Source of the DNA: a virus
Lineage: Duplodnaviria; Heunggongvirae; Uroviricota; Caudoviricetes
Virus record (IMG/VR): IMGVR_UViG_3300003155_000382
Strand: one strand, 5' to 3'
DNA length: 6,969 nt
The notes under the pieces were generated by a model. That model was given only the letters and a program-made list of their open reading frames with translations, ran no database searches and had not been told where the DNA came from. The translations under genes were made by a program, and so were the position numbers. Positions 1 through 6,969 of the stretch are shown piece after piece. How positions within the stretch are numbered: position 1 is the first letter of the stretch; every line of letters starts with the position of its first letter.

Positions 1-88
1 GCGCGGGGTATGCCCCTTACTGCCACCTTTACCCATAGATAATTCCCGAAACAGTAATCAATTTTATGCGAACCATATAACGACCGCT

Positions 89-169: not shown

Positions 170-691
170 ATGATAAAAAAAATACTTGCTGTAACTGCGC
201 TACTTAGTGGAGCCGTAATGGCTGATACAATGACGATCCCTGTAAATCTCGTTTCCTCAGAAGGAGTAGGGAAAAATATAGGGGAAATAACTATTTCAGA
301 AACCAGCTACGGATTGCTGTTCACTCCTCATCTGAAAGAACTGCCACCAGGGTTACATGGCTTTCATATCCATGAAAATGCCAGTTGTGATCCCGGTCTG
401 ATTAATGGAAAAAAAGTGCCAGCTCTTGCTGCCGGTGGGCATTATGATCCTGAACAAACAAATAAACATCTTGGGCCGTACAATCCGGAGGGCCATCTGG
501 GTGATCTACCAGCACTCTATGTCAACTCAGAAGGAAATGCAGAAAACCCGGTTCTGAGTCCAAAAATAAAAAAAATAAGCCAGATAAAAGAACGGGCGAT
601 CATGATTCATGCCGGAGGGGATAATCATTCCGATTCACCTGCTCCTCTGGGGGGTGGGGGCGCAAGACTGGCATGCGGAATAATTAAATAA
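170..691 (+). CDS. sodC: Periplasmic Cu,Zn superoxide dismutase (SodC family), prophage-borne copy
   Basis: 173 aa with an N-terminal signal peptide (MIKKILAVTALLSGAVMA, AxA-type cleavage site). SodC hallmarks are present: HGFHIH copper-ligand motif, GGHYDP...KH...GHLGDLP zinc-loop histidines and aspartate, the disulfide cysteine pair (NASCDP and RLACG), and the C-terminal GGGGARLACGIIK with the conserved arginine. The gene is AT-rich, consistent with horizontal acquisition. Confidence 0.9.
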   Translation: MIKKILAVTALLSGAVMADTMTIPVNLVSSEGVGKNIGEITISETSYGLLFTPHLKELPPGLHGFHIHENASCDPGLINGKKVPALAAGGHYDPEQTNKHLGPYNPEGHLGDLPALYVNSEGNAENPVLSPKIKKISQIKERAIMIHAGGDNHSDSPAPLGGGGARLACGIIK

Positions 692-732: not shown

Positions 733-733
733 A

Positions 734-940
734 TCAGCGACCAATAACCACAACCTGACCACCATCCCCTTCATCTGCCGTGCTGATCTCCTGAGAGACC
801 ACACGTGACCCCACGCGCAGTTCACCGTACAGAACAGGCAGAACATTGCCCTGGGCAACCAGGTTATTCAAAGGCATCCTCAACGAATGGGATTCCCTCG
901 TCGCTCTGTTGAAGTCTGAAATGAAGATACACGGAAACAA
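734..940 (-). pseudogene. Short GC-rich ORF, probably a remnant of a longer gene; function unknown
   Basis: 68 codons with a TTG start and an in-frame stop only 4 codons upstream. GC content is clearly higher than the flanking AT-rich sodC and intergenic DNA. I do not recognise the protein sequence. Confidence 0.2.
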
Positions 941-1044: not shown

Positions 1045-1067
1045 GCCGCATCAATGCGGCTTTTCTT
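1045..1067 (+). terminator. Rho-independent terminator between the sodC unit and xis
   Basis: GCCGCA-TCAA-TGCGGC stem-loop (1045-1060) followed directly by TTTTCTT (1061-1067). On the opposite strand there is no T-run, so it is unidirectional (+). Confidence 0.6.
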
Positions 1068-1091
1068 GCGTGTAATTGCGGAGACTTTGCG

Positions 1092-1310
1092 ATGTACTTG
1101 ACACTTCAGGAGTGGAATGCACGCCAGCGACGCCCAAGAAGCCTTGAAACAGTTCGTCGATGGGTACGCGAGTGCAGGATATTCCCTCCTCCGGTTAAGG
1201 ATGGAAGAGAGTATCTGTTCCACGAATCAGCGGTAAAGGTTGACTTAAATCGACCAGTAACAGGTAGCCTTTTGAAGAGGATCAGAAATGGGAAGAAGGC
1301 GAAGTCATGA
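1092..1310 (+). CDS. xis: Excisionase Xis, lambda type
   Basis: 72 aa, [72 protein letters not shown]. As far as I can recall this is essentially identical to phage lambda Xis. GGAG Shine-Dalgarno at 1080-1083. The 3' end overlaps the int start by 23 bp, as in lambda. Confidence 0.95.
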   Translation: MYLTLQEWNARQRRPRSLETVRRWVRECRIFPPPVKDGREYLFHESAVKVDLNRPVTGSLLKRIRNGKKAKS

Positions 1311-2358
1311 GCGCCGGGATTTACCCCCTAACCTTTATATAAGAAACAATGGATATTACTGCTACAGGGACCCAAGGACGGGTAAAGAGTTCGGATTAGG
1401 CCGAGACAGGAGGATAGCAATCACTGAAGCAATACAGGCCAATATTGAGTTGCTATCCGGGAACAGGCGTGAGTCACTGATAGACAGAATTAAAGGCGCT
1501 GACGCAATCACTCTTCATGCGTGGCTTGACCGATATGAAACAATCCTCAGCGAGAGGGGTATCAGGCCGAAAACTCTACTCGACTACGCCAGCAAAATCA
1601 GGGCAATCCGAAGAAAATTGCCGGACAAACCGCTCGCAGACATATCAACGAAAGAGGTGGCAGCAATGCTAAACACCTACGTAGCAGAAGGTAAAGCGGC
1701 TTCCGCAAAATTAATCAGGTCAACCCTTGTTGACGTTTTTCGTGAGGCAATAGCCGAGGGGCATGTGGCTACGAATCCGGTAACAGCAACCCGCACAGAA
1801 AAATCAGAAGTAAGGCGTTCAAGACTGACAGCTAATGAATATGTCGCGATTTACCATGCAGCCGAACCGCTCCCAATCTGGCTGAGGCTGGCAATGGATT
1901 TGGCTGTCGTTACAGGGCAGAGAGTAGGCGATTTATGCAGAATGAAATGGTCAGACATAAACGACAACCATCTTCACATTGAGCAGGGTAAAACAGGGGC
2001 TAAGCTCGCCATTCCGCTGACGCTAACGATTGACGCGCTCAATATCTCATTGGCTGATACACTACAGAAATGCAGGGAGGCCAGCGGCAGTGAAACAATA
2101 ATTGCATCAACGCATCACGAACCGCTTTCCCCGAAAACAGTATCTAAGTATTTTACAAAGGCGAGAAATGCATCTGGACTCTCATTTGATGGAGACCCGC
2201 CAACATTCCATGAACTGCGCAGCCTGTCGGCGAGGCTATACCGGAATCAGATTGGCGATAAGTTTGCTCAACGTCTTCTCGGGCATAAATCAGATTCAAT
2301 GGCGGCGCGTTACAGGGACAGTCGCGGGCGGGAGTGGGACAAAATTGAAATATCATAA
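1288..2358 (+). CDS. int: Tyrosine site-specific integrase, lambda Int family
   Basis: 356 aa, the same length as lambda Int. The first ~55 residues (arm-binding domain) match lambda Int as I recall it. Catalytic residues are conserved in context: R in [10 protein letters not shown] in [13 protein letters not shown] and R in [12 protein letters not shown] in LLGHKSD, and Y in AARYRD. AGAGGA Shine-Dalgarno sits upstream of the ATG. Confidence 0.95.
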
Positions 2359-2979
2359 TGGTTTTATTTTGATTAATAATGACCAGCGCACATTAACATA
2401 TTGATAATTAATGAAATTTTTAATATACAACTTCCATGTCATAAGTTGTTGCAGACTGACTGCGCGCATTCCGTTGTCAGTTTTTGTGGCGCTTCCGGTG
2501 TGGTAGATGATGTAACGTCCCATCCATACCATTAAGTGCTGGTCATCGCCCTGATCGAAAAAAATCATATCGCCAGGCAACGCCTGGTTTATGTCCTGGC
2601 CAATAAAATGGCTGTTGTACTGAATCAAATTAATTGCGGTCACATAGGGGCCAGTTTTCCCATTCCCCTGGCTCCAGTTTTGTGCCAATTGCCGCTGTTC
2701 AGGTGTTAGCGCCATCTCCGGCGGCAGATATTGGTTAGATATGCTGTTATTTTTTAGCCATTTACTGTCATGAACTTTCAACGCCTCGTTTGCCGCAAAG
2801 CGCACCAGACCCGCGCAATCCTGCTGATACCAACGTGGGCTTGGCCCCTGACGAAGTTGTTCCTGGGCAATGCGCACAAACCAGGCACGAAATAGTCCCG
2901 ATTGTTCGACATCCAGCATTTCGCTATGGGCGAAAAAACAAAACAGCCAGCAAATCAGCGCCGACAACACGCGCCTCAT
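2353..2979 (-). CDS. yfaT: YfaT-like DUF1175 family protein; 3' end runs through the att core into prophage DNA
   Basis: 208 aa. Assigned from position and size: in E. coli K-12 the gene order is gyrA-yfaA-yfaT, all on the same strand, and YfaT is about 207 aa. Its start overlaps the yfaA stop (ATGA), suggesting translational coupling. The last ~26 codons are extremely AT-rich and lie on the phage side of the att core. Confidence 0.7.
2356..2448. other. Prophage attachment site at the int-proximal junction (attL-type: P' arm, IHF site and core)
   Basis: Starting at the int stop codon, the sequence is colinear with the lambda P' arm as I recall it from lambda attP and attL, with identical segment lengths. 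It contains three arm-type-like repeats (2356-2386), an IHF-like site, and a core CAACTT(2428-2433)-ccatgtcat-AAGTTG(2443-2448) with the same 6-9-6 architecture as lambda CAGCTT-N9-AAGTTG. Confidence 0.7.
2394..2406 (-). promoter_or_regulatory. IHF binding site candidate (H'-equivalent)
   Basis: The reverse complement reads TATCAAtatgTTA, a full match to the IHF core consensus WATCAANNNNTTR. It lies at the same distance from the core as the lambda H' site (TATCAAtttgTTG). Confidence 0.5.
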
Positions 2980-4673
2980 AATGGTTGCCAGCTAACAGGC
3001 AACCACTGCCAGGCAGCCCCGGGCTCCATCTTGACCAGTTTCATTGCATAACGGGGTTGTTGCGATAAAGCGTCCAGCTTCGGCATTAATAAAGTCTGCG
3101 CTGCGTTATAAAAAACAGGCTCAAGGTTTTTTGGCAAGCTGGCCAATGTTTCATTACGCAGTAATTTTGCCACCCCTTGTGGATTGATATAGACCGGAAT
3201 GACGCCATCAGCCGGTATTACATCCACCATTGCCGGGCGCGTTTTGTTCAGCGTTTGCAGCGCGTTATTGACCAGCGTGTCGTCAAGGGAGAAAATCAGC
3301 GTCTTGTTCTGCATCGCCAGCGAGACGCGGAAAAAATAATCGGACATCAGTTGTTCTGGTTTCGCCGCCTGGGCTGCGGGATACTGACCATAACGGGAGC
3401 TGACTTCACGCCGCCAGATTTGCGCGTCGCCCTGTTGTGTTTGCGTTACCGGCAACACACCTTCAGGTGCTTTGCTCTCGAGGGCCCCGATTGTTTGTGT
3501 AAACAGCTTCCCTGGCAGTTGCGCTTGCTCGGCAGCGCCATCAAATTGGCCAACAAACAGGGGGGTTTGCAACCTGGAATCTTCATACCAGCATAGCCCG
3601 GCAGCACCGTCCAACATCCCGCTCAATTTGTCGTTTTCCTGGCTGATATGCGAGAGCATCTCTTCGGCAATACCGTGCGAATAAGGCAGCGCCACGCAGA
3701 AGCTGGCACCAGCAGGCATACTGCGCCATACCGGAGTGAAATCAAAACTGGCATCGACACTGGCGGATTCATCATTCAACGCCAGAAAGCTGCGCCAGCC
3801 ATCATTGCTCATTTCAAAGCGCACGCCAGCAAAAGAAGGAATTAACCGCTGGTAACCTAAACCCAGCAAATTAGCGCTAACCACGATACGCTGGCGAACA
3901 AGTGTTTTTTCAGCGGAGGATTGTAAACGGTCTTCCAGGCCAAAGCTGGCCTCCCAGTGTTTTTTCCCGCTCAACAAATCACTCGCGATCGCCGTGGCTT
4001 CGGTATCCTGCTGGTCGCCTTTAAACAACATATCTGTGCTGGAAAAAACCAGCATCTTGTCCTGATAACGGGTAAACAGCAGTGAGTTATTGCCGTTATA
4101 GCGCAGTTGATAAACAGGTATGGTTTCATTATTAATCGTAATGCTACTGATCTCCGTCTTACTTAACTGGCTGTCGCTGGTGGCGGCAAACAGTAACGGC
4201 TCCAATAACTTACTCAAACCACTGCGTTGAATCAGCACGATATAATGCGAGAGATGGCCTTGTTTGTCGTGCCACAGCGCCGCTTGCGCTGGCTGGTCTA
4301 ACAATGAAGAAAAGAGCTTATCTTTCAGCGTTAAATCATGTTCATACACAATGCGCCGAATACTACCTTCAATCCCCAGACGGTCAGCATGGTTCTGATA
4401 ATAAAAAACAAAATCTTCACTTAGAACATCGCGCAGAAAAGGAATTGTGAGGAGGTCTTTGGGAAGCTGGCTTAACGAATCGCTGTCGAGAAAGAGGTCC
4501 GGCTCATTGAGATCGATTTGCAGATTGTTGTGCACCACCAGAGGCGACAACGTTTTTTCTGGCCCACTGCCAGCATATTGCAATGCCCAGACACCCGCGG
4601 AAAGCAGTGCTATTGCGCCAAAACCTACAAGACCATAAAACCGCCAGCCTTTCGCCCTTTTTTCACCACTCAT
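2976..4673 (-). CDS. yfaA: YfaA-like DUF2138 family protein (N-terminal membrane anchor)
   Basis: About 565 aa, lying immediately downstream of gyrA as in E. coli K-12. The likely start is the ATG at 4671-4673, which has an AGGAA Shine-Dalgarno 7 nt upstream; the GTG two codons further up (4677-4679) has no usable spacing. The N-terminus has a hydrophobic segment ([22 protein letters not shown]). The stop overlaps the yfaT start. Confidence 0.7.
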
Positions 4674-4780
4674 TGCCACATTCCTTGTGTAAAGCCAGCC
4701 ATTTTTTACGGGCGATGCAAAATTTTCTCGCGCCTTAATACAACAAAAGCCCAGACTTTGCAGCCTGGACTTTTCAATTC

Positions 4781-4804
4781 AAAAAAGGGAGATTACTCCC
4801 TTTT
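4781..4804 (-). terminator. Rho-independent terminator of gyrA
   Basis: GGGAG-ATTA-CTCCC hairpin (4787-4800), extendable by A:T pairs, about 20 nt after the gyrA stop. On the minus strand it is followed by TTTTTT (complement of A6 at 4781-4786). Confidence 0.65.
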
Positions 4805-4821
4805 GGCATGAAGAAATAAAA

Positions 4822-6969
4822 TTATTCTTCTTCTGGTTCGTCGTCAACGTCCACTTCCGGAGCGATTTCATCGTCCCCTTCCGCTGCGCTGCCGTCAATA
4901 GCATCCAGATCTTCATCGTCAACTGGTTCTGCAACACGTTGCAGCCCCACCACGTTCTCCCCTTCTGCAGTACGGATAAGGATCACGCCCTGGGTGTTAC
5001 GGCCCACGATGCTGATCTCCGACACGCGAGTACGGACCAGCGTCCCCGCATCAGTGATCATCATGATCTGGTCGCAGTCATCAACCTGCACCGCGCCAAC
5101 CACTAAACCGTTACGTTCGGTAACTTTGATGGAGATGACCCCTTTCGTCGCACGCGACTTAGTTGGATACTCCTCCACCGCGGTACGTTTACCGTAACCG
5201 TTCTGCGTTGCAGTAAGGATTGCGCCATCGCCGCGCGGCACGATCAGAGAGACGACTTTATCGCCTTCACCTAAACGGATACCGCGAACACCGGTAGTGT
5301 TGCACCCCATTGCGCGGACGGAAGACTCTTTGAAGCGCACCACTTTACCTTCGGCGGAGAACAGCATCACTTCGTCTTCACCGCTGGTCAGGTCAACGCC
5401 GATAAGTTCATCGCCTTCAACCAGTTTGATCGCCACTTTACCAGCAGTACGCAGGCGGTTGAATTCGGTCAGGACCGTTTTCTTCACGGTACCGTTAGCG
5501 GTCGCCATGAAGACTTTCACGCCTTCTTCAAACTCGGTCACCGGCAGGATCGCAGTGATACGTTCGTCCTGCTCCAGCGGCAGCAGGTTGACTATCGGAC
5601 GACCACGCGCGCCACGGGTCGCTTCCGGCAGTTGATAAACTTTCATCGAATAGACGCGACCACGGCTGGAGAAGCACAGGATATGATCGTGGGTGTTCGC
5701 CACCAGCAGTCGGTCGATAAAGTCTTCATCCTTAATACGTGCGGCAGATTTACCTTTACCGCCACGACGCTGCGCTTCGTATTCAGAAAGCGGCTGATAT
5801 TTCACATACCCCTGATGAGAGAGCGTGACAACAACATCTTCCTGAGTGATCAGATCTTCCAGGTTGATATCTGCGCTGTTGGCAGTGATTTCCGTGCGGC
5901 GTTTGTCACCGAACTGTTCACGAACCAGCTCCAGCTCTTCACGGATCACTTCCATCAAGCGATCGGCGCTGCCAAGAATACGCAACAGTTCCGCAATCTG
6001 ATCCAACAACTCTTTATATTCATCGAGCAGTTTTTCATGCTCAAGGCCGGTCAGTTTCTGCAAACGCAGATCCAGAATCGCCTGAGCTTGCTGCTCGGTC
6101 AGATAGTACAGCCCGTCACGCACGCCAAACTCGGGTTCCAGCCATTCTGGACGCGCAGCATCGTCGCCAGCACGTTCCAGCATTGCGGCAACGTTGCCCA
6201 GCTGCCACGGATTAGCAACCAGTGCGGTTTTCGCTTCTGCCGGGGTTGGCGCATGACGGATCAGTTCAATGATCGGGTCGATGTTCGCCAGCGCCACAGC
6301 TAATGCTTCAAGGATATGCGCACGGTCACGGGCTTTACGCAGTTCGAAAATGGTACGACGGGTCACCACTTCGCGGCGGTGACGAACAAACGCAGCGATG
6401 ATGTCTTTCAGGTTCATGATCTTCGGCTGACCATGGTGCAATGCCACCATGTTGATACCGAAGGAAACCTGCAACTGGGTCTGGGAGTAGAGGTTGTTGA
6501 GCACCACTTCACCGACCGCATCGCGTTTAACTTCAATCACGATGCGCATCCCGTCTTTGTCAGACTCGTCACGCAACGCGCTGATGCCTTCCACGCGTTT
6601 TTCTTTTACCAGTTCCGCAATTTTCTCGATCAGACGCGCTTTGTTCACCTGATACGGAATTTCGTGGACGATAATAGTTTCACGCCCGGTTTTGGCGTCA
6701 ACTTCCACTTCAGCACGCGCACGGATGTACACCTTACCGCGACCGGTACGGTAAGCTTCTTCGATACCACGGCGACCATTAATGATCGCTGCCGTCGGGA
6801 AGTCCGGCCCCGGGATGTGTTCCATCAGCCCTTCAATGCTGATGTCTTCATCATCGATATACGCCAGACAACCGTTGATGACTTCCGTCAGGTTGTGCGG
6901 CGGGATGTTGGTTGCCATACCTACGGCGATACCGGAAGAACCGTTCACCAGCAGGTTAGGAATTTTGGT
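4822..6969 (-). CDS. gyrA: DNA gyrase subunit A, 5'-truncated by the window edge
   Basis: The translation matches E. coli GyrA from about residue 161 ([27 protein letters not shown]...) to the acidic C-terminal tail (...[19 protein letters not shown]). The gene continues beyond position 6969. The first in-frame start in the ORF track is not the true start. Confidence 0.97.

Follow-up and report, generated by a model that had tools for sequence, protein, structure and literature searches.

Does the prophage that adjoins yfaT separate yfaA and yfaT from the rest of the alpha-2-macroglobulin cluster, and does transcription of these host genes run antisense into the integrase gene int? The question is raised by a stretch of 6,969 nucleotides, filed as virus record IMGVR_UViG_3300003155_000382 and here called the window, in which the phage genes xis and int on the plus strand and the host genes gyrA, yfaA and yfaT on the minus strand converge on yfaT. 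Our analysis makes it very likely that the window comes from Escherichia albertii, that a prophage with an HK022-type integration module entered yfaT and decayed to a remnant of about 7 kb, that the operon was split as a result, and that the convergence of int and yfaT is no regulatory device; any antisense effect on int would probably be unimportant.

Origin of the DNA and position of the junction

Judged by sequence identity, the source of the window is E. albertii. It is 99.94% identical over its whole length to strain KF1 (CP007025, locus L018), from which it is separated by 4 substitutions in 6969 bases; other near-identical genomes differ from it by 4-6. The host part is 85-93% identical to E. 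coli and is matched by every complete E. coli genome. The gene layout was derived from six-frame open reading frames and Pfam matches, which agree with the identities and orientations that a reading made from the sequence only had given for yfaA, yfaT, int and xis.

The sequence-only reading had the prophage start at the 3' end of yfaT. The break in identity places the phage/host junction inside the open reading frame instead, at 2430|2431. To its left, positions 866-2430 match a prophage of E. coli O26:H11 str. 11368 at 99.6% identity; from 2431 rightward the identity is that of host DNA, about 90%, whether O26 or K-12 is compared. The resulting frame, yfaT' (2353-2979, minus strand, 208 residues, homologous to MagC/DUF1175; Pfam E = 3.6e-46), is chimeric: residues 1-183 are encoded by the host (2431-2979), whereas residues 184-208 and the stop codon are encoded by the P' arm of the phage attachment site (2353-2430). 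The stop codon (2353-2355) overlaps the last sense codon of int. The Pfam DUF1175 match in yfaT' ends at residue 182 (profile position 202/226), compared with residue 205 (225/226) in YfaT of K-12, and BLASTP similarity between the two proteins stops at residue 183.

The protein is not a full-length MagC/DUF1175 homolog, as its C-terminus has been replaced: the 24 native residues are lost, with 25 residues read from the P' arm in their place. The native tail is present in the E. albertii type strain and is nearly identical even in MagC of Pseudomonas aeruginosa (PDB 7BK8), so the lost segment is highly conserved. Phage 21 and e14 supply a replacement 3' end for icd (PMC3603311). A phage-supplied substitute for the yfaT 3' end was also considered and rejected, as the phage-encoded tail is dissimilar to the native one and its frame and length vary between carriers; owing to a 1-bp difference in the P' arm, the chimeric YfaT has 201 residues in O26 and 208 here.

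Integration module and attachment sites

The module next to the junction is of the HK022 type. The excisionase gene xis (1092-1310, plus strand, 72 residues, intact; Pfam Exc, E = 3.9e-41) encodes a protein identical to HK022 Xis, and lies immediately upstream of, and overlaps, int (1288-2358, plus strand, intact). The latter encodes a heterobivalent tyrosine integrase of 356 residues, 347 of 355 of which are those of HK022 Int (98%). Its Pfam domains (Arm-DNA-bind_1, Phage_int_SAM_1, Phage_int_M and Phage_integrase) cover arm binding, core binding and catalysis, and it aligns over its full length with the lambda Int structures 5J0N and 1Z1G, with R212, K235, H308, R311, H333 and Y342 conserved. 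Residues D99, P282, K283, K287 and R319, which we take to determine HK022-type core specificity, are all HK022-like in the alignment. From 866 to the core, the window is 95.8% identical to phage HK022 at the nucleotide level.

The attachment sites were delimited by aligning the window with the annotated attP of HK022 and with the far junction of the element in KF1. Between int and the host DNA lies the AT-rich P' arm of attL (BOP'; 2359-2430, no strand assigned), which is homologous to the P' arms of HK022 and lambda, can be aligned with the annotated HK022 attP as far as the core, and is 100% identical in the E. albertii relatives; on the minus strand it forms the foreign tail of yfaT'. The attL core follows at 2428-2448 (21 bp, no strand assigned), CAACTTC-CATGTCA-TAAGTTG, and consists of a C-type site, a 7-bp overlap CATGTCA (2435-2441) and a B'-type site. 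A 15-bp stretch of it, 2431-2445, recurs at the other end of the element with a single mismatch (CTTATGACATGGAAG and CTTCTGACATGGAAG in KF1), at a distance of 7,059 bp, and the blocks of host homology overlap by exactly 15 bp, whether K-12 or the empty site in the type strain NBRC 107761 is taken as the reference. In the orientation of the window, attR in KF1 reads GTCCTTC-CATGTCA-GAAGGAG, attB in K-12 and in the type strain reads GTCCTTC-CATGTCA-TAAGTTG (GTCCTTCCATGTCATAAGTTG), and the core of the annotated HK022 attP (L022, about 2160-2185) reads CAACTTA-TTCACCT-AAAGGAT. The attB site is located inside the yfaT coding sequence, 75 nucleotides before the yfaT stop codon and 8 nucleotides before the ATG of yfaS.

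Both junctions share the same overlap, flanked by imperfect inverted core sites, with the P' arm by int and the P arm at the opposite end, and occupied and empty sites within the species differ exactly by the element plus one copy of the core. These features also bear on whether the adjacency of int and yfaT might be an artefact of assembly or recombination, or an illegitimate insertion. That chimeras do occur in public data is illustrated by one metagenome scaffold, which joins an E. coli-like gyrA to an E. albertii-like segment. Several complete chromosomes of E. albertii have the int-yfaT junction base for base, as do 176 complete genomes of E. coli; the 15-bp core duplication is accompanied by HK022-like P' and P arms on their proper sides, and the empty site matches exactly. 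The recurrent junction, the core duplication and the exact empty site together refute an artefactual or illegitimate origin, to which we attach a vanishingly small probability.

A lambdoid phage carrying an HK022-type int-xis-attP module with the overlap CATGTCA very probably integrated site-specifically at attB in yfaT. The similarity to HK022 (Int 98%, Xis identical, a P' arm homologous up to the core, and the same C-O-C' architecture) contrasts with two differences: the overlap is TTCACCT in HK022 and CATGTCA here, and the core sites CAACTTC/GAAGGAG are changed at 1-2 positions relative to CAACTTA/AAAGGAT of HK022. Because of the changed overlap the target is yfaT and not the attB of HK022 itself. 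HK022 Int is reported to accept arbitrary overlaps provided that they are identical in both partners (PMC7736782), so the demand for identity at the new site is explained by the changed overlap. By analogy with HK022, this tolerance would explain how a near-identical integrase uses another site, if the altered half-sites are compatible. On comparison of the att sites, the module looks like a natural retargeting of the HK022 type to yfaT. Its competence for integration and excision is indicated only indirectly, by the occurrence of occupied and empty sites.

Two further observations concern related modules. In Stx1a phages of the phage collection (LC744181 and others) the overlap is still of the HK022 type. 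The four differences between the window and KF1 (positions 1166, 1172, 1263 and 1638) all fall in xis-int, with none in the other 5.7 kb; three of them lie within 100 nucleotides of xis, and one gives G58 in Xis, as in HK022, versus S58 in KF1 and O26. This cluster of differences may be a patch of gene conversion from another HK022-type prophage.

Decay of the prophage

Beyond the integration module little of the phage is left, and the full-length prophage of the sequence-only reading is contradicted by a remnant of about 7 kb with a deletion joint at 865/866. Left of the joint lies a 133-bp 3' fragment of the tail assembly gene I (733-865, minus strand; 93% identity to O26 L003 21419-21551), which is fused at 865/866 to the region upstream of xis; at 866 the alignment makes a jump to L001 8001, a short way upstream of xis. 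Because of this jump, the genes for head, tail shaft, lysis, replication, immunity and recombination are deleted. In KF1 and near-identical genomes 7,059 bp separate the two copies of the core, and among E. albertii strains the distance ranges over 5.6-8.2 kb. Between the cores, KF1-type genomes contain int, xis, sodC, fragments of J and of tail-fibre genes, nleG and a 440-residue nleA-like gene. The KF1 element (7,059 bp) has no immunity, replication, lysis, head or tail modules and is not an intact inducible lambdoid prophage.

A larger relative occupies the same site in E. coli O26:H11 11368, where a 49.7 kb nleA-carrying prophage at yfaT has a 90-nucleotide yfaT 3' fragment and yfaS-yfaQ-yfaP on its far side. 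The two elements have in common the near-identical stretch 866-2430, the yfaT junction and the genes beyond; they differ in that the O26 prophage is near-complete, whereas about 7 kb remain here, and in the host, which is E. albertii here. The integrated prophage has since decayed by internal deletions, with both att sites kept.

The macroglobulin operon

In K-12 the gene order is gyrA-yfaA-yfaT-yfaS-yfaQ-yfaP, all on one strand, as the sequence-only reading had stated for the yfa genes, and yfaT overlaps yfaS. The operon genes are contiguous in K-12 and in Pseudomonas, and yfaT-yfaS are contiguous in the E. albertii type strain. In the window and the KF1 lineage the series DUF2138-DUF1175-A2M-DUF2300-YfaP is interrupted by about 7 kb between DUF1175 and A2M. 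On the comparison of these gene orders, the insertion divides the five-gene type-II macroglobulin operon into two parts, yfaA-yfaT' and yfaS-yfaQ-yfaP. The predicted separation of yfaA-yfaT from yfaS-yfaQ-yfaP was indeed seen in KF1 and its relatives, with the qualification that yfaT is truncated as well. The search for yfaS beyond the other end of the prophage, which that reading had proposed, found it in KF1 and relatives (99.9% identical to the window), where an intact yfaS of 1534 codons directly follows the element; it is displaced as expected, by a decayed prophage of about 7 kb and not by one of full length.

The cluster had also been described as functionally unresolved. It is homologous to the macroglobulin operon magABCDEF of P. 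aeruginosa, in which yfaA corresponds to magB, yfaT to magC, yfaS to magD, yfaQ to magE and yfaP to magF/A. The gene order in Pseudomonas is YfaP-like, DUF2138, DUF1175, A2M, DUF2300; the order DUF2138-DUF1175-A2M-DUF2300 is shared, with the DUF2138 gene preceding MagC, and YfaT matches P. aeruginosa MagC (7BK8) over its whole length (E = 1.8e-103). The MagB equivalent yfaA (2976-4679, minus strand) is intact and full-length (Pfam DUF2138, E = 4.4e-275, profile positions 2-560/560), with a predicted N-terminal membrane helix and the ATG at 4673 as its likely start. The two operons differ in size, with six genes in P. aeruginosa and five in Escherichia, where there is no magA-like gene upstream of yfaA, and in that the element here separates the magC equivalent from the magD equivalent and the MagC homolog lacks the conserved C-terminus.

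In P. aeruginosa, MagB holds MagD, a type-II macroglobulin, at the inner membrane, the processed 100-kDa form of MagD is absent in magB and magC mutants, and the authors concluded that the Mag proteins need to be co-expressed from one operon (PMC3735191; PMC5764988). Since MagD processing depends on MagB and MagC and on co-expression from one operon, the Mag-like complex is, by analogy, probably impaired in carriers of the element. Because the core is duplicated, yfaS retains its start codon and an upstream AGGA, read as a Shine-Dalgarno sequence; the DNA further upstream is now phage DNA. A promoter scan upstream of yfaS in KF1 gave only a weak match (17189-17218), no better than chance.

The ratio of nonsynonymous to synonymous substitution rates (dN/dS) against E. 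coli is 0.057 for yfaA, 0.10 for yfaT and 0.048 for yfaS. Long-term relaxed selection on yfaA and yfaT was considered and not seen by this measure; the low values fit an insertion that would be recent.

Transcription across the junction

The sequence-only reading proposed that transcription from a yfaA promoter passes through yfaT' and attL, runs antisense across int and xis, lowers the amounts of Int and Xis, and in this way couples excision to the host operon. The convergent geometry of yfaT' and int is as this requires, and since yfaT' is translated up to the int stop codon, transcripts must reach at least 2353. Its expectation that no strong terminator lies between yfaT and int held: on the minus strand there is no intrinsic terminator from the junction (2430) to about 1650, where the first candidate, at 1622-1602, is weak (about -8 kcal/mol), and folding of the RNA of 2340-2440 gave no significant structure. 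The native position is internal to the operon, with yfaT overlapping yfaS, so no terminator is expected there.

Against this stands the upstream region. The gyrA gene ends in tandem intrinsic terminators (4745-4804, minus strand), two hairpins at 4804-4783 and 4774-4745 that are each followed by a U tract, fold with -12 and -19 kcal/mol (z = -3.7 and -5.4) and were also found in the terminator scan, so that read-through from gyrA would be blocked by two strong terminators. Some 65 nucleotides between these terminators and yfaA are all the room there is for any yfaA promoter, and a scan of the minus strand upstream of yfaA found no sigma-70-like site, with matches at or below chance only.

The stretch directly after the yfaT' stop codon is a further obstacle, as it is untranslated and resembles a Rho utilization (rut) site. 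Minus-strand RNA from 2391-2275 contains 28-33% C and 14-19% G, and the RNA of 2360-2250 is less structured than 199 of 200 shuffled sequences (z = +2.2). Such C-rich, G-poor, unstructured RNA past the stop codon is the signature of a candidate Rho loading site. Rho suppresses untranslated antisense transcription. Transcripts of yfaA would thus be translated through attL to 2353; beyond this point the RNA is untranslated, C-rich, unstructured and free of an intrinsic terminator, so Rho probably ends transcription within the 3' part of int.

There is also little sense transcription to interfere with. In lambda-type phages, int and xis are driven by pL and by a CII-activated promoter. The genes cII and cI and the promoter pL are absent from the remnant, which has kept a CII box of a lambda-type pI (TTGC-N6-TTGC, TTGCGTGTAATTGC; 1066-1079, plus strand), an exact match to the pattern, immediately upstream of xis; we take its position and sequence to be the same as in lambda pI. 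Two terminator-like hairpins (992-1010 and 1045-1060) lie just upstream of it. Since pL and cII are deleted, the sense transcript of int is probably barely made, and int would be nearly silent with the CII-dependent pI box alone. If another resident lambdoid prophage provided CII, this protein might in principle activate int in trans.

The arrangement resembles the attL-int region of lambda, where int is likewise transcribed toward attL and converges on a facing host gene, and a CII-dependent pI box precedes xis; it differs in that translation of the facing host gene here runs through the P' arm as far as the int stop codon, and in that repressor, pL and cII are deleted. The convergence of int and yfaT very probably reflects the fixed orientation imposed by lambda-type integration and is not a regulatory device. 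Moreover, the element is unable to form phage and 3 of 10 related loci have lost int-xis by deletion, which argues against selection on the control of excision. Antisense transcription into int is geometrically possible, but it is speculation with no positive support and with little to act on; any effect on the integrase is probably unimportant, and we regard control of excision by the host operon as quite unlikely. The literature on regulation of yfaA, yfaT and yfaS and on prophage integration at yfaT in E. albertii yielded nothing beyond PMC3603311.

Distribution and decay among carriers

The insertion is not confined to the window. At least 80% of it, with int-xis next to yfaT-yfaA-gyrA, is present in 176 of 5426 complete E. 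coli genomes (about 3%), in which a full prophage occupies the site, and yfaT has been listed by Bobay, Rocha and Touchon among the conserved genes disrupted by phage integration (PMC3603311). A protein search with no E. albertii-type native YfaT among its results had suggested that the insertion might be fixed in E. albertii. A genome scan disproved this: the site is empty in the type strain NBRC 107761, where yfaT (207 residues) and yfaS are intact and the host DNA is 99% identical to that of the window, so the insertion is polymorphic within the species. It is an ordinary insertion of a kind already catalogued, at a known site and here in E. albertii, and will not surprise a specialist.

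Ten E. albertii carrier loci, a small and non-random sample, were surveyed for decay. Either yfaA or yfaS is broken in four of the ten: the reading frame of yfaA is shifted in L013 and L017 and an IS66 element interrupts the gene in L016, and in L012 yfaS is cut short by a stop at codon 708. The int-xis genes are deleted in L012, L013 and L017, and in L015 xis is displaced by an insertion sequence (IS).

This survey weighs on a further explanation, in which the remnant is a domesticated switch (active lysogeny): Int and Xis, its own or supplied in trans, would excise it precisely and restore yfaT and the contiguous macroglobulin operon. Both int and xis are intact though almost all other phage functions are gone, both att sites are kept with their arms, recombination within the 7-bp overlap would recreate the exact empty-site sequence of the type strain, and dN/dS of yfaA, yfaT and yfaS is still low. 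The losses of int-xis and of xis, and the broken yfaA or yfaS genes, speak against it, as does the fact that no regulator remains in the element; retention of int-xis beside an att site is the usual pattern of prophage decay by internal deletion. An excision module kept under selection next to a functional interrupted gene is not what these ten loci display, and we consider the switch very unlikely. A variant in which the remnant is excised reversibly, in cis or by a co-resident HK022-type prophage, at a rate modulated by host transcription across attL into int, joins this idea to the antisense mechanism and is just as improbable.

One of the surveyed loci, L013 (GCA_024529815.1, 12400-20627), carries the remnant without a second att core, followed by genes for an OspG-like kinase and a Peptidase_M91 protein; further on, genes of the HSP70 family, an AlkA-like gene and a large MASE1/PAS/GGDEF gene, presumably yegD-alkA-yegE, stand in place of yfaS. 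The locus has evidently undergone a large rearrangement or deletion, probably by recombination between prophages.

Other features of the window

At the left edge, the 5' end of the tail-tip gene J (1-36, minus strand; 94% identity to the gpJ start in the E. coli O26 prophage) runs on beyond the window. In KF1 this gene is itself a fragment, adjoined by an open reading frame with an FNIII-A_GpJ domain. Between the tail genes I and J, on the strand opposite to both, lies sodC (170-691, plus strand; Pfam Sod_Cu, E = 1.6e-32), a cargo gene for a periplasmic Cu/Zn superoxide dismutase, and many intact E. albertii prophages have the same SodC protein in this place, flanked by Lambda_tail_I and gpJ.

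At the right edge, the 3' 2.1 kb of gyrA (4822-6969, minus strand) leaves the window; it is 93.4% identical to gyrA of K-12 and named gyrA in all matching genomes. Scans of the window for transfer RNA and transfer-messenger RNA genes found none, and an Rfam scan gave zero matches, with no known riboregulator in 2353-4821, so the integration site is not an RNA gene.

In the scaffold mentioned above (L021, ENA metagenome MUNK18-1 scaffold_120), the remnant and yfaT are identical to the window and most of yfaA is nearly so, with gyrA at 93.5% and the yfaA-gyrA spacer at 89.4% identity in the region equivalent to 4540-6969. By this pattern it would be either the product of a chimeric assembly or a recombinant whose breakpoint lies near the yfaA 5' end.

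Implications

Several points weigh against the interpretation of a decayed, HK022-type insertion that splits the operon and lacks regulatory antisense transcription. The far end of the element is outside the window and was taken from genomes that differ from it by the few substitutions given above. We infer promoter activity, Rho termination and the silence of int from sequence. The genes yfaS-yfaQ-yfaP could have a promoter of their own, or one in the attR arm. The low dN/dS values show that purifying selection still acts, and they do not prove that the split operon is non-functional. Even with these points, the decayed insertion is by far the most probable account of the locus.

For annotation, this means that the 208-residue 'DUF1175 protein' listed in these E. 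albertii genomes, like a similar E. coli cluster, is a chimera of host and phage without the conserved C-terminus. For the integrase family, the locus is a clean natural case of an HK022-type enzyme used at another place in the chromosome, where the overlap is not that of HK022 and the core half-sites deviate slightly. For Escherichia, the yfa/mag operon is likely crippled in carriers and intact in the type strain, and the pair of carrier and type strain provides natural genotypes for studying the type-II macroglobulin complex in this genus.

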